Below are positions 1 to 9,111 of a DNA stretch of 9,362 nt, one piece after another. The stretch lies in the IMG/VR virus record IMGVR_UViG_2541047897_000003, one strand, 5' to 3'. Below the pieces are notes generated by a model that was not told the origin of the DNA, ran no database searches, and was given only the letters and a program-made list of their open reading frames with translations. Numbering within the stretch: the stretch's first letter is position 1; each line of letters begins with the position of its first letter. Origin of the DNA: a virus (Duplodnaviria; Heunggongvirae; Uroviricota; Caudoviricetes). The position numbers were made by a program, and so were the translations under genes.

Positions 1-1056
1 TTAAAACTGATAGGTCATGCCAACCGCGACAATATCATCATTATTAATATTCAATTTGTTATCGCTATCCAGTTGGTTGATTTTATAATCAACAAACGCT
101 GACATATTTTTGTTGAAATAATACGTAGCACCAACATCGACATAATTGACCAGATCTTCATCACCGATGCCCTCAATATCTTTCCCTTTCGATAAGACAT
201 AACCCAGCGATGGACGCAGACCAAAGTCAAACTGGTATTGAGCGACCGCTTCAAAGTTCTGCGTCTTATTGGCAAAGCCGCCAGAGATTGGCATCATTTT
301 ACGTGTTTCAGAATAGAAAGTTGCCAGATAAATATTATTGGCATCGTATTTCAGACCTGTTGCCCATGCTTCTGCACGCTTGCCTGTGCCACGGCTTTGC
401 AGGTTCTGCTCGTTGGTACGATCAGAGTTGGTATAGGCTCCACTGATGGCGAAATCGCTGCCACCAAAGTCATATGTCAATGACGTGCCGAAGCCATCGC
501 CGTTTTGCTTTTTAACGTCGCGGTTTTCGTTTTTCCCTTGATATTGCAGGGTTAAGTTCAGGCCATCGATAACGCCGAAGAAGTCGGTGTTCCGATACGT
601 CGCCAGACCGCTGGCGCGTTTGGTCATAAAGTTGTCGGTCTGCGCCGAGGAGTCGCCACCAAATTCCGGGAACATATCGGTCCAGGCTTCCACGTCATAC
701 AACGCGCCCAGGTTACGACCATAATCGAAAGAACCCAAATCTTTATATTTCAACCCGGCAAAAGCGAGACGCGTTTTTTGCTGTGCAGTATCACTCTCCG
801 CTTTATTACCGGCAAACTCAGCTTCCCAACGACCATAACCAGTCAGTTGATCGTTAATTTGTGTTTCGCCTTTAAAACCAAAACGGATATAACTCTGGTC
901 GCCATCTTTACTGTCATTATCACTCATATAATGCATGGCTTTAACTTTGCCATAGACATCCAGTTTATTACCGTCTTTGTTATATATTTCTGCGGCCTGT
1001 ACGGATACAGATGCCACAATGCCCATCACCACTAATGCCAGAGTGCTCTTTTTCAT
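1..1056 (-). CDS. phoE: Outer-membrane phosphoporin PhoE (phosphate-starvation-inducible anion porin), complete
   Basis: ORF track 1..1062 (-) translates to [18 protein letters not shown]...[18 protein letters not shown]... ending ...VGMTYQF (signal peptide, C-terminal Phe typical of general porins). Recognised from memory as E. coli PhoE. The second ATG (1056-1054) is preceded by AGGA at ~6 nt and gives the known MKKSTL N-terminus; stop codon at 1-3. Confidence 0.9.
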
Positions 1057-1128
1057 TTTCATTCCTGATTTTAATTAACGCGCGAATATTCAGCGGGAGA
1101 GTCCCGTTGAAAACAGGAAAGTTTTTAA

Positions 1129-1155
1129 CCTGAGATTGTTAAAGATATATTACAG
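1129..1155 (-). promoter_or_regulatory. Pho box (PhoB-binding site) of the phoE promoter
   Basis: Reverse complement of 1129-1155 reads CTGTAATATATCTTTAACAATCTCAGG, which matches my recollection of the phoE Pho box and the CTGT-N7-CTGT-like PhoB half-site spacing. It lies ~75-100 bp upstream of the phoE start. Confidence 0.6.
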
Positions 1156-1180
1156 ATTAATAATATTCTTAAAATGTGGT

Positions 1181-1352
1181 TGTATTGATTCACTTGAAGT
1201 ACGAAAAAAACCGGGAGGACATTGGATTATTCGGGATCTGATGGGATTAGATTTGGTGGGGCTTGCAAGCCTGTAGCGCAAATTTTAGTCGTTAATCAAT
1301 GAAACGCGAAAGATAGTAAAAAATTGCTTTTGTTTCATTGAAAATACGAAAA
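1181..1352 (+). repeat. Prophage left attachment end (attL) with three MuA-binding sites: L1 ~1186-1207, L2 ~1291-1312, L3 ~1331-1352
   Basis: The 5' TG terminus is at 1181. L1 (TGATTCACTTGAAGTACGAAAA) and L3 (TGTTTCATTGAAAATACGAAAA) fit the MuA end-site consensus YGTTTCAYTNNAARYRCGAAAR; L2 (..ATGAAACGCGAAAG) is a weaker match. Spacing of L1/L2/L3 from the terminus (~6, ~111, ~151) is as in Mu. Confidence 0.8.
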
Positions 1353-1518
1353 ACAAAAACACAGCAAATCATTTCAATAACAGCTTCAAAAAACGTTCAA
1401 AACCGATAACAACCAGGCTGTAACCAAATGACTCATATCACAAATCAGCTCATGCCGTTTAGGTATGTTACATGTGTGATTATGTGAGGTGAAGTATGTT
1501 TTAGCTGGTTCATGGTTG

Positions 1519-2034
1519 TTATACGGCTTTTTTTACATCTTGTGGTTCTTGTGAAGGAGCTACAAAACCTTCCTGTTCATGAATACCATACTCTGACAAA
1601 ATCTCTTTGCGCGCATCTGCTGGTAAAGTTTCTAGCATTTGGGCTAGTTGTATGCACTCACGCGATACGCCGTGCAGAGATTGGATTTGAGTCTGATCAA
1701 AGATACTTGGCATTAGTGCTCCAAGTCCGCCTTTACTAAGTAGCTTTAATGCCCTCTGGATTTCCTCTGGTTCTAACTCTGCGACCAAAGCCATTAACAC
1801 AGAAGCTAACTTATAAGCTGGCTTATCGCTATCTAATAACTGCGCCCCTCCTAATTCTGCCTGAGTGGCATCAGGTAATGAGCTGATATGGTATTCATAA
1901 GCAACTCCCTTTACTCCTTTGATCTGTCTCTTTTTCCATCCCTCATTAGTTGCTTTGCGGCTAATACTACTTGCTGAAGACGGAAGACCAGCAACCCCTT
2001 GTAGCTCTTTAGCTGAAAACCATTCTTGTGTCAT
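1519..2034 (-). CDS. c: Prophage repressor c (immunity repressor), D108-like rather than Mu-like; N-terminal winged-helix DNA-binding domain shared with the transposase
   Basis: ORF track 1519..2037 (-). The likely start is the ATG at 2034-2032, preceded by GAGG ~7 nt upstream on the minus strand (the track starts at an upstream GTG). Position and orientation match Mu c. The N-terminus ([24 protein letters not shown]...[15 protein letters not shown]) parallels the N-terminus of the adjacent transposase. Confidence 0.8.
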
Positions 2035-2233
2035 CACAAACCTCGCTTTAAATACACTGTGTATTCAAAGAAACAAAAATATATTCATTTTAAAATCATC
2101 AAGATAGATGAAATTCAAACGAAATATTTGAATACATCATTGCATTGACAATGTATTCACACTAACATTGCTGCATACCTTGTCAGCTACCTTGCGGCGT
2201 AGCTGATGGCGTAGCTTGTGAGGATTGCATTTT
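2035..2233. promoter_or_regulatory. Divergent early/repressor promoter-operator region, overlapping the expected transposition enhancer; repeated TGTATTCA motifs
   Basis: 200-bp AT-rich interval between divergent c and ner. TGTATTCA at 2060-2067 and 2152-2159, its complement TGAATACA at 2129-2136, and a one-mismatch copy at 2080-2087. Perfect 15-bp palindrome AATACACTGTGTATT at 2051-2065. TTGACA at 2145-2150 is a candidate -35 for the rightward early promoter, but no good -10 was found. Confidence 0.55.
2182..2218. promoter_or_regulatory. Putative Ner operator: inverted repeat plus direct repeat just upstream of ner
   Basis: Inverted repeat TCAGCTAC (2183-2190) / GTAGCTGA (2199-2206) with an 8-bp spacer. 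Direct repeat GGCGTAGCT at 2197-2205 and 2208-2216, 11 bp apart (one helical turn). This is where Ner-type repressors are known to bind in Mu and D108. Confidence 0.4.
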
Positions 2234-2452
2234 ATGGCGATAAAGAAAAGTAAATGTGAAGACAAAAGCAGATACGACATTGTTGCTGATCTGCGCAAAA
2301 GAGGAAAAAGCCTAGCAGCTCTTGGTCGTGAGAACGGTCTCTCTATCTCTACGGTAAAAAATGCCTTGGATAAACCTTACCCTCGGGGTGAAAGAATTAT
2401 TGCCGATGCATTGGGAGTTGAGCCACGAGACCTCTGGCCTTCGAGGTATTGA
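2234..2452 (+). CDS. ner: Ner-like DNA-binding protein (negative regulator of early and repressor transcription; Ner/Nlp family)
   Basis: ORF track 2225..2452 starts at TTG. The likely start is the ATG at 2234, with GAGG at 2219-2222. The product (MAIKKSK...[58 protein letters not shown]) has the Ner/Nlp HTH signature and C-terminal WPSRY. Its stop overlaps the transposase start region. Confidence 0.8.
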
Positions 2453-2454
2453 AA

Positions 2455-4455
2455 ATGCAACCACAATGTAATGATTGGTTTTCTGCAAAGAAATTAGAAG
2501 GGCTGATAGGTCTTCCAAAATCCTCTAGCGCGATCTCTCGTAAAGCAAGGTTAGAACAGTGGGTGTTTCGACAGATACACGGGGTAAGAGGAGTAGCCTA
2601 TGAGTTTCATATCTCATCTTTACCAAAGGAAACGCAAGCTGCGTTATTGCTTAGACAAGGAGAGATTGAAACAAGCATGGGCCGTTTTGAAATCGCCCGC
2701 CCCACGCTGGAAGCCCACGATTATGATCGCGAGGCGCTGTGGAGCAAATGGGATAACGCCAGCGATTCCCAGCGCAGACTTGCTGAAAAATGGTTGCCTG
2801 CGGTTCAGGCCGCAGACGAAATGCTGAACCAGGGGATTTCAACAAAAACGGCTTTTGCGACCGTTGCAGGACATTACCAGGTCAGCGCATCCACTTTGCG
2901 TGACAAGTATTACCAGGTACAGAAGTTTGCGAAGCCTGACTGGGCGGCTGCTCTTGTTGATGGACGTGGTGCATCCCGTCGCAATGTTCACAAAAGTGAA
3001 TTTGACGAGGATGCCTGGCAGTTTCTGATTGCAGATTATCTGCGACCGGAAAAACCCGCCTTCCGCAAATGTTATGAGCGTCTGGAACTGGCAGCCCGCG
3101 AGCATGGCTGGAGTATTCCCTCCCGTGCCACGGCCTTTCGCCGGATTCAGCAACTGAACGAGGCAATGGTTGTTGCCTGCCGTGAAGGTGAACATGCACT
3201 GATGCATCTGATACCGGCACAACAACGAACTGTGGAACACCTGGACGCCATGCAGTGGATCAACGGCGACGGTTATCTGCATAACGTCTTTGTACGCTGG
3301 TTTAACGGTGATGTGATCCGCCCGAAAACATGGTTCTGGCAGGATGTGAAAACCCGAAAAATTCTGGGCTGGCGCTGCGATGTGAGCGAGAACATTGATT
3401 CAATTCGCCTCTCGTTCATGGATGTTGTGACTCGCTACGGTATCCCGGAGGATTTTCACATCACCATTGATAACACCCGTGGTGCTGCGAATAAATGGCT
3501 GACGGGAGGCGCGCCCAATCGCTACCGCTTTAAGGTAAAAGAGGACGATCCAAAAGGACTGTTTTTACTGATGGGGGCGAAAATGCACTGGACAAGCGTT
3601 GTTGCCGGTAAAGGCTGGGGCCAGGCAAAACCTGTTGAACGTGCTTTCGGTGTTGGTGGGCTTGAGGAATACGTTGATAAGCATCCGGCACTGGCTGGCG
3701 CATATACGGGGCCTAATCCGCAGGCAAAACCTGATAACTATGGCGACCGCGCTGTTGATGCAGAGCTGTTTCTGAAAACCCTTGCCGAAGGTGTGGCGAT
3801 GTTCAATGCCAGAACAGGCCGTGAAACAGAAATGTGCGGAGGCAAACTTTCGTTTGATGACGTTTTTGAGCGTGAATACGCCAGAACGATTGTGCGTAAG
3901 CCTACCGAAGAGCAAAAACGGATGCTGTTACTGCCTGCCGAGGCGGTGAACGTTTCACGTAAAGGCGAGTTCGCGCTTAAAGTTGGCGGCTCCCTTAAAG
4001 GTGCGAAAAACGTTTATTACAACATGGCGTTAATGAATGCCGGAGTGAAAAAAGTTGTGGTCAGATTTGATCCACAGCAGTTACACAGCACGGTTTATTG
4101 CTACACCCTGGACGGTCGGTTTATCTGTGAAGCGGAATGTCTGTCACCTGTTGCGTTTAATGATGCTGCGGCAGGCCGTGAATATCGCCGCCGCCAGAAA
4201 CAACTGAAATCTGCGACGAAAGCAGCGATTAAGGCACAGAAACAAATGGATGCACTGGAAGTGGCAGAGCTGCTGCCGCAGATAGCCGAACCTGAAGCAC
4301 CAGAATCACGAATTGTCGGCATTTTCCGGCCTTCCGGTAATATGGAACGGGTGAAGAATCAGGAGCGTGATGATGAATACGAAACTGAGCGTGATGAATA
4401 TCTGAATCATTCGCTGGATATTCTGGAACAGAACAGACGTAAAAAAGCCATTTAA
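2455..4455 (+). CDS. A: Mu-type DDE transposase A (MuA) with a D108-like N-terminal enhancer/operator-binding domain
   Basis: ORF track 2449..4455 (668 aa from TTG). The likely start is the ATG at 2455, with GAGG at 2443-2446. From about residue 65 onward ([12 protein letters not shown]...[38 protein letters not shown]...) it matches Mu transposase as I recall it. DDE catalytic contexts are visible ([31 protein letters not shown]). Confidence 0.95.
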
Positions 4456-4493
4456 TTAACGTTTAAACAAAATTTAATTACGAGGTTATTCAG

Positions 4494-5432
4494 ATGAATA
4501 TTTCCGATATTCGCGCAGGACTGCGCACGCTTGTAGAAAATGAAGAAACCACCTTTAAACAAATTGCTCTTGAGAGCGGACTTTCTACCGGAACTATCAG
4601 TAGTTTTATCAATGATAAGTACAACGGGGATAACGAGCGTATTTCACAAATTCTGCAACGCTGGCTGGAAAAATATCATGCAGTTGCAGAACTACCTGAA
4701 CCGCCCCGCTTTGTGGAAACGCAGACGGTAAAACAAATCTGGACAAGTATGCGTTTTGCCAGCCTGACTGAAAGTATTGCTGTTGTATGTGGCAATCCTG
4801 GTGTGGGCAAAACCGAAGCGGCCCGTGAATATCGCCGCACCAATAACAATGTCTGGATGATCACCATTACGCCATCCTGTGCCAGCGTTCTGGAATGTCT
4901 TACTGAACTGGCGTTTGAGCTGGGAATGAATGACGCACCACGCCGTAAAGGGCCGCTCTCCCGCGCCCTGCGACGTCGCCTTGAAGGTACACAGGGGCTG
5001 GTTATCATCGACGAAGCTGATCATCTTGGTGCCGAAGTTCTGGAAGAACTCCGCCTGTTACAGGAATCAACCCGTATTGGCCTTGTGCTGATGGGAAATC
5101 ACCGGGTTTATTCAAATATGACGGGGGGTAACAGAACGGTTGAATTTGCCCGTCTGTTTTCCCGTATTGCAAAGCGCACTGCAATTAATAAAACAAAAAA
5201 AGCCGATGTAAAAGCTATTGCGGATGCCTGGCAGATTAACGGCGAAAAAGAACTGGAGTTATTACAGCAGATTGCGCAGAAACCAGGTGCGCTTCGCATT
5301 CTGAATCATTCACTTCGCCTTGCCGCCATGACGGCTCACGGTAAAGGTGAGCGTGTTAACGAAGATTATCTGCGTCAGGCTTTCCGTGAATTAGACCTGG
5401 ACGTTGATATTTCAACGCTGCTGCGTAATTAA
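4494..5432 (+). CDS. B: Mu B protein (AAA+ ATPase, target-DNA capture and transposition activator)
   Basis: 312-aa ORF with GAGG 7 nt upstream. N-terminus MNISDIRAGLRTLVENEETTFKQIALESGLSTGTISSFIND (HTH). Walker A GNPGVGKTEA and Walker B LVIIDEADHL. Length and sequence match MuB from memory. Confidence 0.95.
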   Translation: MNISDIRAGLRTLVENEETTFKQIALESGLSTGTISSFINDKYNGDNERISQILQRWLEKYHAVAELPEPPRFVETQTVKQIWTSMRFASLTESIAVVCGNPGVGKTEAAREYRRTNNNVWMITITPSCASVLECLTELAFELGMNDAPRRKGPLSRALRRRLEGTQGLVIIDEADHLGAEVLEELRLLQESTRIGLVLMGNHRVYSNMTGGNRTVEFARLFSRIAKRTAINKTKKADVKAIADAWQINGEKELELLQQIAQKPGALRILNHSLRLAAMTAHGKGERVNEDYLRQAFRELDLDVDISTLLRN

Positions 5433-5447
5433 GAAGGAGAAGAAATT

Positions 5448-5675
5448 ATGATGGCCCGAAATATAAAAATGGCAACGGATGCGCAGAACTGGTTACAGGC
5501 GCGCGGGAGTCATGTAAATGAATCATATCTCGGCGTGGCGCGTCCGATTCTTGAAATCACTTACCCACCGGTGGAACTGGTAAAAAGCGCGGTCAGAATT
5601 ATGGAGCATAAGTCCGGGGTGGCCCGTTCTGTATGGACGGCCCGTCTTAATGGTTGCCAGATTATCTGGAGATAA
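5448..5675 (+). CDS. kil: Kil-like small early protein (assigned by position immediately downstream of B, as in Mu)
   Basis: 75-aa ORF (74 aa if started at the ATG at 5451). GGAG at 5436-5439. Tightly packed after B in the same operon. Functional assignment is by synteny only. Confidence 0.55.
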
Positions 5676-5677
5676 CG

Positions 5678-5908
5678 ATGTGTATTAAAGCTGAAAAATA
5701 TATTGAATGGGTTAAACACTGTCAGTGCCACGGGGTGCCGCTGACGACATATAAATGCCCCGGATGTGGTGAACAGATTATGACGCAATGCTCACCCGAA
5801 AAGGAAATTCGGGATTCCCTGACATGTTGTCCGTGGTGCAGCGCGGTTTTCTTTAAGCAGGTAAAAGGCGCGAAGGTAAAAGCCAGCGCAGTTATTCAGA
5901 ATCAATAA
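5678..5908 (+). CDS. Hypothetical small Cys-rich (putative zinc-binding) early protein
   Basis: The ATG at 5678 follows the kil stop (5673-5675) by 2 nt, with GGAG at 5667-5670; the track ORF 5654..5908 starts further upstream. The 76-aa product has 9 Cys: C15-x-C17, C27-x2-C30, C38, C50-C51-x2-C54. Confidence 0.55.
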   Translation: MCIKAEKYIEWVKHCQCHGVPLTTYKCPGCGEQIMTQCSPEKEIRDSLTCCPWCSAVFFKQVKGAKVKASAVIQNQ

Positions 5909-5919
5909 GGAGAAACAAA

Positions 5920-6189
5920 ATGGCAAAGGTTATCTTTGAGTTTACATGGCTGGAAAGTAGTGACGGTTGCAATGGGCGCAGAGAAGTTCTGGATGCAAAA
6001 GCATGTCTTGCAGATATCTCGCCAACGGAAAATACCGGGCCTCATGATTTACTGGCAAATATCGTCCTGACTATGGCTCCTGAAATTATTAAAAAGGCCA
6101 AAGATGAGATGCTGACCACTATGAAGAAAGTGGGTATGGAAGCTGAATGTGATTTAGTACCACATCCGGTGAATGCGGTTAAACATTAA
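5920..6189 (+). CDS. Hypothetical early protein (89 aa)
   Basis: ORF with a strong RBS (AAGGAGA ~8 nt upstream of the ATG), co-directional and tightly spaced within the early operon. No recognisable motif. Confidence 0.55.
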   Translation: MAKVIFEFTWLESSDGCNGRREVLDAKACLADISPTENTGPHDLLANIVLTMAPEIIKKAKDEMLTTMKKVGMEAECDLVPHPVNAVKH

Positions 6190-6209
6190 TTCGCAAAGGA
6201 ACGCTGACA

Positions 6210-6629
6210 ATGAACGTCAAAATCCGAAATGAAATTCAGGCATTAATCCGAATTCAGGAACGCAATAACAACGGTGGTGAATTACGCGAGTTTATTTGCG
6301 CCCGAAAAGTTGATGATTGTGGTGAAAAGACTTACCTGATTGCTTTCGACCATTACAGCATCTGTGCGCGTTATTGCGGCGAAAGCATATCCCGCGCCAT
6401 TGCGTCTGGCGATGCGTTTAACGTGGATTTATGGGAGTACGTCATGGACCGGGAATACATCTGCGCATCAGACCCCGAAGCCCGTGAAATGTGGCAGCGT
6501 ATCTGGCGCGATTACCGGTTAATGGCAAAAGGCTGGGCGCGCTGCTGTTATTCCTCGCTTGCCCTGAAAGCGGTTCAGTTATCGCTGCGGCATATTCCGG
6601 CATCACTGCGCGAGCCTCTGCTGTACTGA
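6210..6629 (+). CDS. Hypothetical early protein (139 aa)
   Basis: ORF with AAGGA upstream. Stop TGA at 6627-6629 abuts the next ATG (TGAATG). Several Cys and Trp residues; no recognisable catalytic motif. Confidence 0.55.
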   Translation: MNVKIRNEIQALIRIQERNNNGGELREFICARKVDDCGEKTYLIAFDHYSICARYCGESISRAIASGDAFNVDLWEYVMDREYICASDPEAREMWQRIWRDYRLMAKGWARCCYSSLALKAVQLSLRHIPASLREPLLY

Positions 6630-6929
6630 ATGGTGGCTGACATGAAGTGTAATCGTAAGCGCTGGTCACGCGAAGACCGGGAATTTATCGAAGCCAGTGT
6701 CGGGAAAATGACCGTTGAAGAAATGGCGGAAAAACTGAAAGTCGCCACAACCGCCCTCCGGGCACATGCCAGAAGGCACGGAATATCATTGTGTGTATAC
6801 CGAATCAGTGAACACGACAAATATTTATGTCGTGAACTTTATAAAGAAGGGCTGGCTATTCATGTCATTGCCCGAAAGATGGAATTAAGCAATCGAGCTG
6901 TATCCAGCATTGTATACAGCGGATATTAA
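6630..6929 (+). CDS. Hypothetical small DNA-binding protein with two helix-turn-helix-like segments
   Basis: 99-aa ORF; alternative start ATG at 6642, preceded by GGTGG. First segment RKRWSREDREFIEASVGKMTVEEMAEKLKVATTALRAHARRHGIS resembles the HTH of IS3-family OrfA and terminase small subunits. A second HTH-like stretch is GLAIHVIARKMELSNRAVSSIVYSG. Confidence 0.5.
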   Translation: MVADMKCNRKRWSREDREFIEASVGKMTVEEMAEKLKVATTALRAHARRHGISLCVYRISEHDKYLCRELYKEGLAIHVIARKMELSNRAVSSIVYSGY

Positions 6930-6948
6930 TTAACAGGAGCTTTAATTT

Positions 6949-7473
6949 ATGGCTAAACCAGCAAAACGCATCAAAAGTGCCGCAGCGGCTTATGTGCCAC
7001 AAAACCGCGATGCGGTGATTACCGATATTAAACGCATCGGGGATTTACAGCGCGAAGCATCACGTCTGGAAACGGAAATGAATGATGCCATCGCGGAAAT
7101 TACGGAGAAATTTGCAGCCCGGATTGCACCGATTAAAACCGATATTGAAACCCTTTCAAAAGGCGTTCAGGGATGGTGTGAAGCGAACCGCGACGAACTG
7201 ACGAACGGCGGCAAAGTGAAGACGGCGAATCTTGTCACCGGTGATGTATCGTGGCGGGTCCGTCCACCATCAGTAAGTATTCGTGGTATGGATGCAGTGA
7301 TGGAAACGCTGGAGCGCCTTGGCCTGCAACGCTTTATTCGCACGAAGCAGGAAATCAACAAGGAGGCGATTTTACTGGAACCAAAAGCCGTCGCAGGTGT
7401 TGCCGGAATTACGGTTAAATCGGGAATTGAAGATTTTTCCATTATTCCATTTGAACAGGAAGCCGGTATTTAA
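6949..7473 (+). CDS. gam: Gam (Ku-like double-strand DNA-end-binding protein; host exonuclease inhibitor)
   Basis: 174-aa ORF with AGGAG ~10 nt upstream. Sequence MAKPAKRIKSAAAAYVPQNRDAVITDIKRIGDLQREASRLETEMNDAIAEI... matches Mu Gam from memory in length and sequence. Confidence 0.9.
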   Translation: MAKPAKRIKSAAAAYVPQNRDAVITDIKRIGDLQREASRLETEMNDAIAEITEKFAARIAPIKTDIETLSKGVQGWCEANRDELTNGGKVKTANLVTGDVSWRVRPPSVSIRGMDAVMETLERLGLQRFIRTKQEINKEAILLEPKAVAGVAGITVKSGIEDFSIIPFEQEAGI

Positions 7474-7515
7474 TACCACCATTAATATTTAATTAATTCA
7501 CATTCTTTTAATTAT

Positions 7516-7545
7516 GGCGCGATGCGTCAGGGGATTGCTCGCGCC
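7516..7545 (+). other. GC-rich inverted repeat (7-bp stem GGCGCGA/TCGCGCC, 16-nt loop) in the gam-downstream intergenic gap; not a canonical intrinsic terminator
   Basis: GGCGCGA at 7516-7522 pairs with TCGCGCC at 7539-7545. It sits in the only sizeable gap (7474-7571) of the early operon and is preceded by a very AT-rich stretch (7471-7515). No U-tract follows the stem. Confidence 0.3.
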
Positions 7546-7571
7546 TGAAACAGATTACTGAGGAATAAAAC

Positions 7572-8102
7572 ATGGTTGATGCAAAAATTCTGAATGGTGT
7601 CAGCACATTATTACGGGCTTACGGACGCCTGACCTGCGGGGTTCTGGCTGAAAAAATGCAGATGCCATCCTCCGCGATGGTGTACTTCCTGCGTGATGCG
7701 GTTGATGCCGGAATGCTGACTGAACTTAATGGTTTTTACGACGTACCGCGTCCCCGTACAGAGCAGCCTGTAAGACGAAACACAACTGAGCAGCCTGCTG
7801 TTGATGATGCGGTGTGGTGCAACTGGCGTCGCTCATTACCCTGGGTGGAAGGTAATACTATCCCCGCGCTGGCAAAAGAGTTTGCAACAGGCGTGCTGAC
7901 CTGTGAGTCCGTTCACATCGTTGCAGAAGTGGATGACGAGATGTGCAAACAGGGAATGCCCCGTTTTGTGATGGCTTATATCGATATCCGGCTGGGGCGG
8001 TTTATTTGCAGTTCAAGCGCCTGGAATATCACCGACCATGTACTGCGTTATCTCATTCTTGATTGTTCTCCGGCTCCCGCAGCGGTGCAGGAGGTGGCGT
8101 GA
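7572..8102 (+). CDS. Hypothetical early protein (176 aa) with an N-terminal winged-helix-like segment
   Basis: GAGG 9 nt upstream of the ATG. N-terminus GVSTLLRAYGRLTCGVLAEKMQMPSSAMVYFLRDAVDAGMLTE looks like an HTH or winged helix. Stop TGA at 8100-8102 overlaps the next start. Confidence 0.6.
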   Translation: MVDAKILNGVSTLLRAYGRLTCGVLAEKMQMPSSAMVYFLRDAVDAGMLTELNGFYDVPRPRTEQPVRRNTTEQPAVDDAVWCNWRRSLPWVEGNTIPALAKEFATGVLTCESVHIVAEVDDEMCKQGMPRFVMAYIDIRLGRFICSSSAWNITDHVLRYLILDCSPAPAAVQEVA

Positions 8103-8632
8103 TGTTTTTTAAAACGTCAAATCCCGCAGCACTGCTGGCATGGGACCAGTTTATGGCGGACTGCCTGAAACTACGCGAAGAAGCCCGCCATCTTGATAAG
8201 GTTCTGGGCTGTGGTTGCCGGTCAGTATTCAGCACAGGTATTGGTGGGCGTCATTTTCATGGCGTGAATTTTCCGGGGAATGAGCGCCCCTTCTCGCGGG
8301 AGCTGTGGACCGTACAACGGCCCGCATCAGGTAACAGTTGCAGGCCCAGAACTTCGCGGATACCTGCTCATCTCAGGGAGCAGGCAAGAGAGCTGGCGAA
8401 AATATGGCAGGAGAATATTCCGGTCACTTACGCCCGCACAGATGCTCTCTTACCCGCACTGGGACTGGATTTCAGCGCAACAATATTCGGACCTCTCCAG
8501 TGGTTCCGTGTTGGTGATGTGATTTACGTCATGACGGGGATGACACCCGCACAAGGCCGCATGACTGAAATCCTTTCGGACGAATTTATCCGGGCGCAAA
8601 AACAGGCAGAGGTAAACAATGGAAAACAGTGA
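8102..8632 (+). CDS. Hypothetical early protein (176 aa)
   Basis: ATG at 8102 is preceded by a perfect AGGAGG (8089-8094) at 7 nt and overlaps the upstream stop (GTGATG). The track ORF 8063..8632 starts at an upstream TTG that lacks an RBS. Confidence 0.6.
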   Translation: MFFKTSNPAALLAWDQFMADCLKLREEARHLDKVLGCGCRSVFSTGIGGRHFHGVNFPGNERPFSRELWTVQRPASGNSCRPRTSRIPAHLREQARELAKIWQENIPVTYARTDALLPALGLDFSATIFGPLQWFRVGDVIYVMTGMTPAQGRMTEILSDEFIRAQKQAEVNNGKQ

Positions 8633-8810
8633 AACATCGTATTCGTGGCTGGGGAAATTTACCACGGTGAAACAGGAATGCCCGACCTGCGGTAATGAAT
8701 CCCCTGAATATCTGAAAGAGTGCCCTCATTGTGGCAGGCAGAAATGCAACCACTGCGATATGGGCGATGACACGGCGTGCATGAATTGTGAAGGTGAACA
8801 GAATGAATAA
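8619..8810 (+). CDS. Hypothetical small double zinc-ribbon protein (63 aa, four CxxC pairs)
   Basis: GAGG 7 nt upstream. Product contains CPTC...CPHC...CNHC...CMNC (four C-x2-C pairs) and an acidic C-terminus. Overlaps the upstream ORF by 14 nt. Confidence 0.55.
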   Translation: MENSETSYSWLGKFTTVKQECPTCGNESPEYLKECPHCGRQKCNHCDMGDDTACMNCEGEQNE

Positions 8811-9111
8811 TGGCGTATTTACAAAATCCGAGGAGCTGACAGCGTTGTTGACGGCGGCTGGTTTTCCTGAAGATGTGATCGGTAACTTTGTGGCGGCGGT
8901 ATATGCCCCGTCTTATAACCGTGCAATTGATGAGGTCATGGCGTACCGACTCGGCATTGTTGCTGAGTCACTGAGTCCTCACTGGATTATTGAAAATCTC
9001 CGCGCTATTGCTGATGGCAACGATAAATCAGCAGCCGTTGCTGCACTGGATGTGTTACGGCAAATGAGTCTGAAATTTTATCCTGAATTTATTCTGAGGA
9101 CCGCAAAATGA
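8803..9111 (+). CDS. Hypothetical early protein (~102 aa)
   Basis: ATG at 8803 overlaps the previous stop (8808-8810), with AAGGTG upstream; the track starts at GTG 8788. No recognisable motif. Confidence 0.5.
   Translation: MNNGVFTKSEELTALLTAAGFPEDVIGNFVAAVYAPSYNRAIDEVMAYRLGIVAESLSPHWIIENLRAIADGNDKSAAVAALDVLRQMSLKFYPEFILRTAK

Follow-up and report, generated by a model that had tools for sequence, protein, structure and literature searches.

Organization of the prophage left end

The window analyzed here, that is, the entire 9,362-bp stretch of DNA, starts within the bacterial chromosome. Positions 1-1180, which include phoE on the minus strand (stop codon at position 1, annotated start at 1056) and 124 bp of the phoE-proB spacer, are collinear with E. 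coli K-12 (259045-260224, 97.7% identity), and the match to the host terminates exactly at 1180, where the prophage is inserted. The host DNA is adjoined by the left end of the element (attL; 1181-1518, plus strand), which is 98.5% identical to Mu positions 1-338 compared to 79.8% identity to D108 and, as in the Mu family, contains three transposase end-binding sites (cores at 1196-1207, 1301-1312 and 1341-1352, identified as matches to RAARYRCGAAAR). The prophage portion of the window (approximately 9.4 kb altogether) comprises 8.2 kb from the left side of the element, and all early open reading frames, from c through B (4494-5432, following A) and gam, are intact. The insertion junction between phoE and proB is absent from all other complete E. 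coli genomes searched, which suggests that the insertion is a recent event.

The early region shows the arrangement characteristic of the Mu family, with a leftward gene for a winged-helix repressor, the divergent genes ner, A and B, and homologous N-terminal domains in the repressor and the transposase. The repressor gene c (1519-2034, minus strand) is an open reading frame that encodes a 171-aa protein with a significant match to the Pfam domain PF02316 (E = 2e-22); the protein is annotated as 'repressor' in Escherichia phage PhiR68_1, and the RefSeq entry WP_019841371.1 has an identical length and start. Translation probably begins at the ATG at 2034 rather than at the GTG at 2037 because a GAGG motif lies 6 nt upstream of the former whereas its spacing from the latter is only 3 nt. 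The winged-helix DNA-binding domain of c maps to residues 4-62 (1849-2025, minus strand), and the last 40 codons (1519-1638, minus strand) comprise a Mu-like tail that, judging by sequence identity, lies outside the exchanged block. On the plus strand, ner (2234-2452) encodes a 72-aa protein (PF13693, E = 4e-25) and is followed by A (2455-4455), which encodes a 666-aa DDE transposase with the I-alpha, I-beta/gamma, core and C-terminal domains (PF02316, PF09039, PF02914 and PF09299); the I-alpha-like N-terminal domain (residues 7-65; 2473-2649, plus strand) is homologous to the DNA-binding domain of c.

This homology, which had been proposed in the original prediction, is readily detectable: the N-termini of c and A align without gaps with 39 of 60 residues identical (BLASTP, E = 8e-28), both score with PF02316, that is, HTH_Tnp_Mu_1 (E = 1e-44 for A), and both match the solved structures of the MuA I-alpha domain (1TNS) and the Mu repressor DNA-binding domain (1G4D). 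Knowledge of a common N-terminal domain in the repressor and the transposase dates back to 1985 for Mu and to 1986 for D108, according to the references cited in PMC3820752 (refs 51, 52). The identity between the two domains within the same phage is 65% here, the highest of the three phages, compared to 42% in Mu and 55% in D108. As a caveat, the c domain of the window is about as similar to the c domain of D108 (33/58) as the latter is to the A domain of D108 (32/58), and these two D108 proteins recognize the same region, so identity alone does not exclude cross-recognition with D108.

Comparison with Mu and D108

The immunity and enhancer module (1639-2616) shows no nucleotide similarity to Mu that would be detectable with blastn or breakpoint alignments. 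In the blastn search against Mu, region 1181-1638 matches with 95% identity and the similarity reappears at 2617 with 97.8% identity (97.3% from 2655 in the segment alignment), with no match between 1639 and 2616. Segment alignments from c through the intergenic region and ner to the 5' part of A give 46-51% identity, which means that these sequences are effectively unalignable. The divergence from Mu anticipated in this region is thus evident, and between 1519 and 2650 high identity to Mu appears only in the last 40 codons of c (85%), the one portion of c that has to be exempted from the claim that c, ner and the N-terminus of A are not of the Mu type. The Mu protein starts on which this claim relied agree with the Mu sequence AF083977, in which c is 196 aa long, with KSNF following the first codon, and A starts with MELWVSPKE. 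The window encodes neither a 196-aa Mu-like repressor (c is 25 residues shorter than in Mu) nor the Ner of Mu (45% identity), although the PF02316 and PF13693 families and a DNA-binding domain common to the repressor and the transposase are features held in common with Mu. The DNA-binding domain of c is 29-37% identical to that of Mu c.

Outside of the module, similarity within A resumes at about 2617 for Mu and at about 2655 for D108, and beyond residue 75 the transposase is 99% identical to those of Mu, D108 and SfMu. The expectation of identity to both phages at the ends and in A holds for Mu but not for the left end of D108, to which identity is only 80%. Similarly, the view that the remainder of the sequence is essentially that of Mu is upheld for the left end and for A beyond approximately codon 55 (97-98%) but not for the entire backbone, which is a mosaic: in blastn searches, segment 5940-6194 matches D108 rather than Mu, and segment 8813-9104 matches SfMu only. 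Within c, the tail is much closer to Mu (85% nucleotide and 72% amino acid identity) than to D108 (60% and 50%), as is the middle region (45% versus 23%). The Mu-like C-terminal tail suggests that the stability of the repressor might be controlled as it is in Mu.

The general conclusion that a module extending from c through the operators and ner into the first 55-65 codons of A was exchanged on a Mu-family backbone, in the manner of Mu and D108, stands, but the specific label 'D108-type' does not. Among characterized phages, D108 comes closest in the binding domains and in the arrangement of the spacer, with 55% identity in the DNA-binding domain of c (43% over the entire c), 62.5% in Ner and 51% in the first 75 residues of A. 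The likeness to D108 and SfMu also includes the gene order, a colinear spacer, the domain common to c and A, the length class of c (171 versus 174 aa), a wing one residue shorter than that of Mu and a nearly identical palindrome at the putative Ner site. Nevertheless, the window lacks the near-identity to D108 in c, ner and 5' A that characterizes phages of the D108 immunity type, the nucleotide match being limited to 68% over 247 nt, and it does not share the repeated operator motif of D108; moreover, attL as well as the middle and tail portions of c resemble Mu. SfMu, by comparison, carries a genuine D108-type module (90% identity to D108 in c, 99% in Ner and 93% in the N-terminus of A). Only four positions that are fixed within the c/A pair of each phage differ between the window and D108; two of these are conservative Ser/Thr replacements, and the Asn in the recognition helix of D108 (TNITRKA in both c and A) corresponds to Ser/Ala in the window.

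The c-ner spacer

The 199-bp spacer between c and ner contains repeats that resemble operators. Adjoining c is an O1-like cluster (2046-2087), recognizable as matches to TRTATTYA (2049-2056 on the minus strand, 2060-2067 and 2080-2087 on the plus strand) and as a near-palindrome; it is followed by an O2-like cluster (2129-2159) built as an inverted pair, TGAATACAT-N13-ATGTATTCA, that is kept in five variant prophages. All five copies of TRTATTYA and all three exact copies of TGTATTCA in the 9,362-bp window fall within this spacer, and on this basis we predict that these repeats are operators. The spacers of the window and D108 are colinear, with TGTATTCA in the former at the positions that correspond to TGATTTCA in the latter: three motif positions that read TGTATTCA in the window read TGATTT/C-C/G-A in D108 and SfMu. 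There are three copies of TGTATTCA in this spacer compared to none in D108 and SfMu; conversely, TGATTYMA is missing in the spacer of the window but is present in four copies in that of D108, and the Mu operator consensus CTTTTYNR is missing as well, compared to three copies in Mu. Relative to D108, the motif shows two fixed differences in all copies and in all six sequences of the PhiR68_1 type. Given the absence of CTTTTYNR and the low identity of the c domains, the Mu repressor is unlikely to act on this prophage, in agreement with the original prediction.

Closer to ner, the spacer contains an inverted repeat, TCAGCTAC-N8-GTAGCTGA (2183-2206), that resembles a Ner site and has invariant arms in the five variant prophages; D108 and SfMu have GAGCTAC-N8-GTAGCTC at the corresponding position, a difference of one base per half-site. 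Among these five variants, no segment varies more than the spacer (16.6%), and yet it retains the motif blocks and the Ner-like repeat; the DNA-binding domain of c is invariant (62/62) in two variants and differs at a single position (61/62) in a third one. Promoters could be assigned tentatively only. A candidate leftward repressor promoter (TTGTCA-17-AATATT; 2123-2151, minus strand) is the sole match of the consensus scan in the region (9/12) but is no better than chance, shuffled sequences yielding 2.4 matches on average, whereas the scan yielded no rightward early promoter, for which the candidate (TTGCAT-17-TAACAT; 2140-2168, plus strand) was placed by its position relative to TTGATT-17-TACATT of D108. 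The IHF consensus (WATCAANNNNTTR or WATCARNNNNTTR) was not found in the spacer by a scan that recovers the site of Mu itself.

A probable third immunity module

Over 1500-2700 (1201 nt), a span that includes the module, the window is 99.8% identical to Escherichia phage PhiR68_1 (GenBank PV340575), the complete genome of which has been deposited with E. coli C given as the host, and the c, Ner and A proteins of the two are identical (annotated in PhiR68_1 as 'repressor', 'Ner' and 'DNA transposition protein'). Colinearity extends over 1181-8589 with 98.3% identity and stops at 8589; the SfMu-like segment 8813-9104 is a further difference from PhiR68_1. Our literature search retrieved no paper on PhiR68_1; a paper published in 2026 that deals with urinary coliphages mentions a D108-like Muvirus but is silent on the present module. 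The module belongs to neither Mu nor D108 but represents a third version that, although sequenced previously, has apparently not been characterized.

We consider it highly probable that the window contains the left end of a Mu-family prophage that is inserted between phoE and proB and carries this third allele of the module, that of PhiR68_1, which is predicted to confer heteroimmunity to both Mu and D108; how the module might work we infer by analogy with these phages. In the Mu operator region, repressor binding sites double as the transposition enhancer. By this analogy, the 171-aa repressor would bind the repeats resembling TGTATTCA in the two operator-like clusters via its N-terminal winged helix and so silence the rightward early promoter of ner-A-B, and, during lytic growth, Ner bound to the inverted repeat would damp both promoters. 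Given its similarity to the repressor domain, the N-terminal domain of A may bind the same clusters in competition with the repressor; these clusters would act as the transposition enhancer, in which case the repressor would also block the transposase directly. As a match among three proteins and their sites would be required, the exchanged unit is proposed to extend from the DNA-binding and middle regions of c to the end of the N-terminal domain of A, with attL and the end-binding domains of A remaining Mu-like and matched to each other. The population pattern resembles that of the lambdoid phages, in which the immunity alleles of lambda, 434, 21 and P22 are interchangeable repressor-operator cassettes on a homologous backbone that permit polylysogeny. 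The lambdoid proteins are unrelated to those of the Mu family, and, since its operators also serve as the enhancer, the Mu-family cassette, unlike the lambdoid one, has to extend into the N-terminal part of the transposase.

Alternative explanations

Could the module be functionally of the D108 type, that is, homoimmune with D108 and merely diverged in sequence? Literal identity with D108 is ruled out by blastn and the protein identities, but the functional version of the idea draws on the closest characterized relatives of all three proteins being those of D108, on the colinear spacer, on the Ner-like palindrome that is one base off per half-site, on the common shorter wing and on the partly conservative character of the recognition-helix differences. 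We nevertheless consider it unlikely given the limited nucleotide similarity, the much greater identity between SfMu, a real D108-type relative, and D108, the two fixed differences in the operator-like motif, and the replacement of the helix Asn. Additionally, in E. coli strain 22KM0354 each of the three types is represented by a Mu-family prophage of its own in which c, ner, A and B are intact, so that D108-type and PhiR68_1-type prophages reside together. The A-B backbones of these three prophages differ by 1.4-1.8%, so that they were acquired separately, and strain MIN10 combines a PhiR68_1-type with a Mu-type prophage. Such co-residence provides natural support for three-way heteroimmunity, although it falls short of strict proof, considering that genome cS51a contains the PhiR68_1-type module in two places.

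The other alternatives concern the history of the locus. The similarity between the domains of c and A could stem from a recent copying or gene conversion event within the phage, as the high within-phage identity (39/58) might suggest, but at the nucleotide level the two domains are only 59.8% identical, the third codon positions match in 19 of 58 cases, which is close to chance, and the same codon is used for 16 of the 39 identical residues. The similarity is therefore old and maintained at the protein level; the codon-position analysis rules out a recent conversion, and we regard this explanation as exceedingly improbable. Finally, immunity would be irrelevant if the prophage were a decayed, non-functional remnant. 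The window covers only the left part of the element, and genome N61 does contain a copy with a deletion, where the module lies directly next to a tail-fibre assembly gene; with c through B and gam intact in the window, colinearity with a complete phage genome and an apparently recent insertion, this possibility is very unlikely. We find it fairly likely that the Mu-family phages of E. coli employ at least three mutually heteroimmune modules, those of Mu, D108/SfMu and PhiR68_1, in which the DNA-binding domain of the repressor, that of the transposase and the operators changed together.

The principle of swappable modules has been textbook knowledge since the 1980s, and the gain from the present analysis is modest: the label is corrected, and natural E. 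coli Mu-family prophages appear to fall into three immunity classes, which, as the natural triple lysogen testifies, can co-exist. If the interpretation is correct, the third type adds a natural orthogonal set of repressor, enhancer and transposase and enables a three-way comparison of the winged-helix recognition code (TGTATTCA versus TGATTTCA, Ser/Ser versus Thr/Asn in the helix). The matched set of repressor, enhancer and A N-terminus could then be used for specificity swaps of the kind performed with Mu/D108 hybrids.

Distribution of the module

Among 5426 complete E. coli genomes, the PhiR68_1-type module is present in 15 (95-100% identity), compared to 27 with Mu-type and 45 with D108-type modules; the A core was detected in 87 genomes, and the type counts overlap: at least two genomes carry modules of different types, and a copy with a deletion appears to lack the A core. 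The PhiR68_1-type prophages occupy different chromosomal sites and interrupt different genes, as expected of active transposition. A wider protein search with c as the query did not recover D108 c, which reflects the sensitivity limit of the tool; beyond its own type, the search retrieved Mu-type repressors, truncated forms and a single Sodalis relative (P0013, 37% identity), the DNA-binding domain of which resembles the PhiR68_1 type. The PhiR68_1-type protein cluster includes 109 member sequences from 844 contigs and is named by its sources as coming from Salmonella enterica, and the related clusters as coming from E. coli.

Layout of the prophage left end

The window starts in host DNA (1-1180; phoE on the minus strand and 124 bp of the phoE-proB spacer), which is colinear with E. 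coli K-12 positions 259045-260224 at 97.7% identity, and passes at 1181 into the left end of a Mu-family prophage that opens with TGTATTGATTCACTTGAAGTACGAAAAAAA. Three transposase end-binding sites lie downstream of this terminus, before the gene for repressor c (1519-2034, minus strand, 171 aa); a c-ner spacer of 199 bp, ner (2234-2452, 72 aa), the transposase gene A (2455-4455, 666 aa), B (4494-5432) and semi-essential early genes including gam (6949-7473) follow. The terminus is located 124 bp upstream of the annotated phoE start (window 1056-1181) and ~163 bp from proB; phoE may be cut off from its upstream regulatory DNA by the insertion.

An early-control module distinct from those of Mu and D108

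Comparison with Mu and D108 by blastn and segment-by-segment alignment delimits a block, 1639-2616, that covers most of c, the spacer, ner and the 5' part of A. The left end (1181-1518) is 98.5% identical to Mu and ~80% to D108, and the last 40 codons of c (1519-1638) 85% and 60%, respectively. Within the block there is no blastn match to Mu (46-51% in forced alignment), and D108 yields 54-62% in forced alignment and a single weak blastn match, 68% over 247 nt at 1987-2230. From 2617 identity to Mu is again 97-98%; the D108 match resumes at 2655 and extends to 8812 at 96.6% (blastn). At the protein level, the first 80 residues of c are 29% identical to Mu and 55% to D108, Ner 45% and 62.5%, and the first 75 residues of A 48% and 51%, with the remainder of A at 99% to both.

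The original prediction of a heteroimmune module swap, with a domain shared by repressor and transposase, was right in kind, and the alignment agrees with it for Mu, with high identity at the left end and in A beyond 2617 and no blastn match over 1639-2616; for D108, only the short 68% match is found there, and the label "D108-type" has to be abandoned. SfMu, which is treated in the literature as a carrier of D108-like regulators (PMC4406740), provides the yardstick: its identity to D108 is 90% for c, 99% for Ner and 93% for the A N-terminus, compared to 55%, 62.5% and 51% for the window, which by sequence places the window module far outside the D108-type scale. Furthermore, the affinities of c are mixed: in its DNA-binding domain it is nearest to D108/SfMu (55-58%), and in its middle and tail it is closer to Mu (45% and 72%) than to D108 (23% and 50%). 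Judged by these comparisons, the module is therefore neither Mu's nor D108's. Given its Mu-like tail, c may be turned over under the same kind of control as the Mu repressor.

The domain shared by repressor and transposase

The homology of the c and A N-termini, both of whose quoted peptides are found in the window, is confirmed by an ungapped alignment with 39/60 identities (E 8e-28). Both score the Pfam profile PF02316 (Mu DNA-binding domain) and match the solved structures of the MuA I-alpha domain (1TNS) and the Mu repressor DNA-binding domain (1G4D); Ner matches PF13693, and A additionally contains the I-gamma, DDE core and C-terminal Mu transposase domains. Within one phage, c and A share 39/58 residues in the window, 32-33 of ~60 in D108 and 25/60 in Mu. 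Could this similarity stem from recent gene conversion between c and A? The DNA of the two domains is only 59.8% identical, third codon positions agree in 19/58 cases and the same codon is used in just 16 of the 39 identical residues; we therefore reject this possibility, and the similarity is old and kept up at the protein level. Neither the shared domain nor the module-swap pattern is new, knowledge of both going back to 1985-86 (references 51 and 52 in PMC3820752).

Established knowledge of Mu and D108 suggests how such a module would work. Repressor c would bind operator clusters and turn off the early promoter; the A N-terminal domain would bind the same DNA, in its capacity as transposition enhancer, and therefore the repressor would also compete with the transposase, with Ner restraining both promoters during lytic growth. 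This arrangement would explain why the swapped block starts inside c and stops where the A N-terminal domain ends (breakpoints relative to Mu at ~1638 and ~2617), leaving outside attL and the A end-binding domains, a presumed matched pair.

Operator-like repeats and a Ner-like site in the spacer

All three copies of the 8-mer TGTATTCA in the 9362-bp window (both strands) fall within the 199-bp spacer, as do all five copies of TRTATTYA, at 2049(-), 2060(+), 2080(+), 2129(-) and 2152(+). The latter form two clusters: one adjoining c, made up of a near-palindrome and one further copy, and an inverted pair with arms 13 bp apart. In a colinear alignment with the D108 and SfMu spacers, three of the motif positions read TGATTTCA, TGATTTGA or TGATTCCA in D108, with the two central bases swapped; neither motif occurs in the spacer of the other phage. 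The Mu operator consensus CTTTTYNR has three copies in the Mu spacer and none in that of the window. Downstream of the clusters lies a Ner-like inverted repeat, TCAGCTAC-N8-GTAGCTGA (2183-2206), where D108 has its Ner operator, GAGCTAC-N8-GTAGCTC. Five variant prophages of the window type differ most in the spacer (16.6% variable columns vs 2.5-9.5% in coding segments), yet they keep the motif blocks and Ner-like arms; three variants were compared in the c DNA-binding domain, which is unchanged in two and has one residue changed in the third. Promoter assignments in this region are tentative, and no IHF consensus was found in the spacer.

Predicted heteroimmunity to Mu and D108

Would such a prophage be heteroimmune to both of its relatives? 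Heteroimmunity to Mu is very probable, and that to D108 is probable, with some doubt when judged from sequence alone. The c domains of the window and D108 share 33/58 residues, as many as c and A have in common within D108 (32/58), and just four positions are constant in the c/A pair of each phage yet differ between the window and D108. The fixed change in the operator-like motif argues for a specificity other than D108's. A natural experiment points the same way: E. coli 22KM0354 (NZ_CP151071.1; dog blood, Switzerland) is a triple lysogen with one prophage each of the window, D108 and Mu types at separate sites, c, ner, A and B being intact in all three. These prophages have one B protein in common (WP_001026710.1), but a pairwise divergence of 1.4-1.8% in their A-B DNA marks them as independent acquisitions. 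Strain MIN10 carries a window-type together with a Mu-type prophage. A caveat to the co-residence argument comes from strain cS51a (NZ_CM176585.1), in which two places in one chromosome match the window-type module, which bears on whether prophages of the same type can co-reside.

Occurrence of the module elsewhere

The exact module sequence is already in GenBank and RefSeq, and we found no paper that treats it as a separate immunity class. Escherichia phage PhiR68_1 (PV340575, host E. coli C) agrees with positions 1500-2700 at 99.8% identity, and its record annotates the same genes as repressor, Ner and DNA transposition protein; colinearity with this phage spans 1181-8589, at 98.3%, and ends there. 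A search of 5426 complete E. coli genomes places the block 1639-2616 in 15 (95-100% identity), the equivalent Mu block in 27, the D108 block in 45 and the A core common to all types in 87; the sum of the type counts is only approximate because at least two genomes hold more than one type and a deleted copy apparently lacks the A core. In strain N61 (NZ_AP028880.1) the module is 100% identical but ends at base 949 of 978, the next annotated gene encoding a tail fibre assembly protein; this prophage seems to have lost a large internal stretch between 5' A and the tail-fibre region. Window-type prophages occupy varied chromosomal sites and interrupt different genes, and the phoE-proB junction of the window has no match among the complete E. 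coli genomes; both observations fit active, near-random transposition.

The 90% cluster that includes the window c comprises 109 member sequences, found on 844 contigs, with sources naming Salmonella enterica; for related clusters at 85-88% the source named is E. coli. In a wider protein search, a 193-aa repressor homologue from Sodalis sp. (P0013) resembles the window type in its DNA-binding domain (including GLPSSPNSVSRKA), which suggests that this domain lineage reaches beyond E. coli and Salmonella. Another match, a 134-aa predicted protein (P0012), has the C-terminal 100 residues of a Mu-type c fused behind an integrase-like N-terminus (PF00589), probably through a Mu insertion or an engineered junction in an integrase gene; the MFDpir and HB101 plasmid matches are similar, laboratory Mu fragments. 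In the Mu-like Yersinia phages vB_YpM_5 and vB_YpM_6, the match to the window begins only at ~4363 (end of A, B and beyond), c, ner and most of A being a different, more distant replacement. The backbone itself is mosaic: 5940-6194 (89-aa ORF, 5920-6189) matches D108 and not Mu, and 8813-9104 (107-aa ORF, 8788-9111) matches SfMu and neither Mu nor D108.
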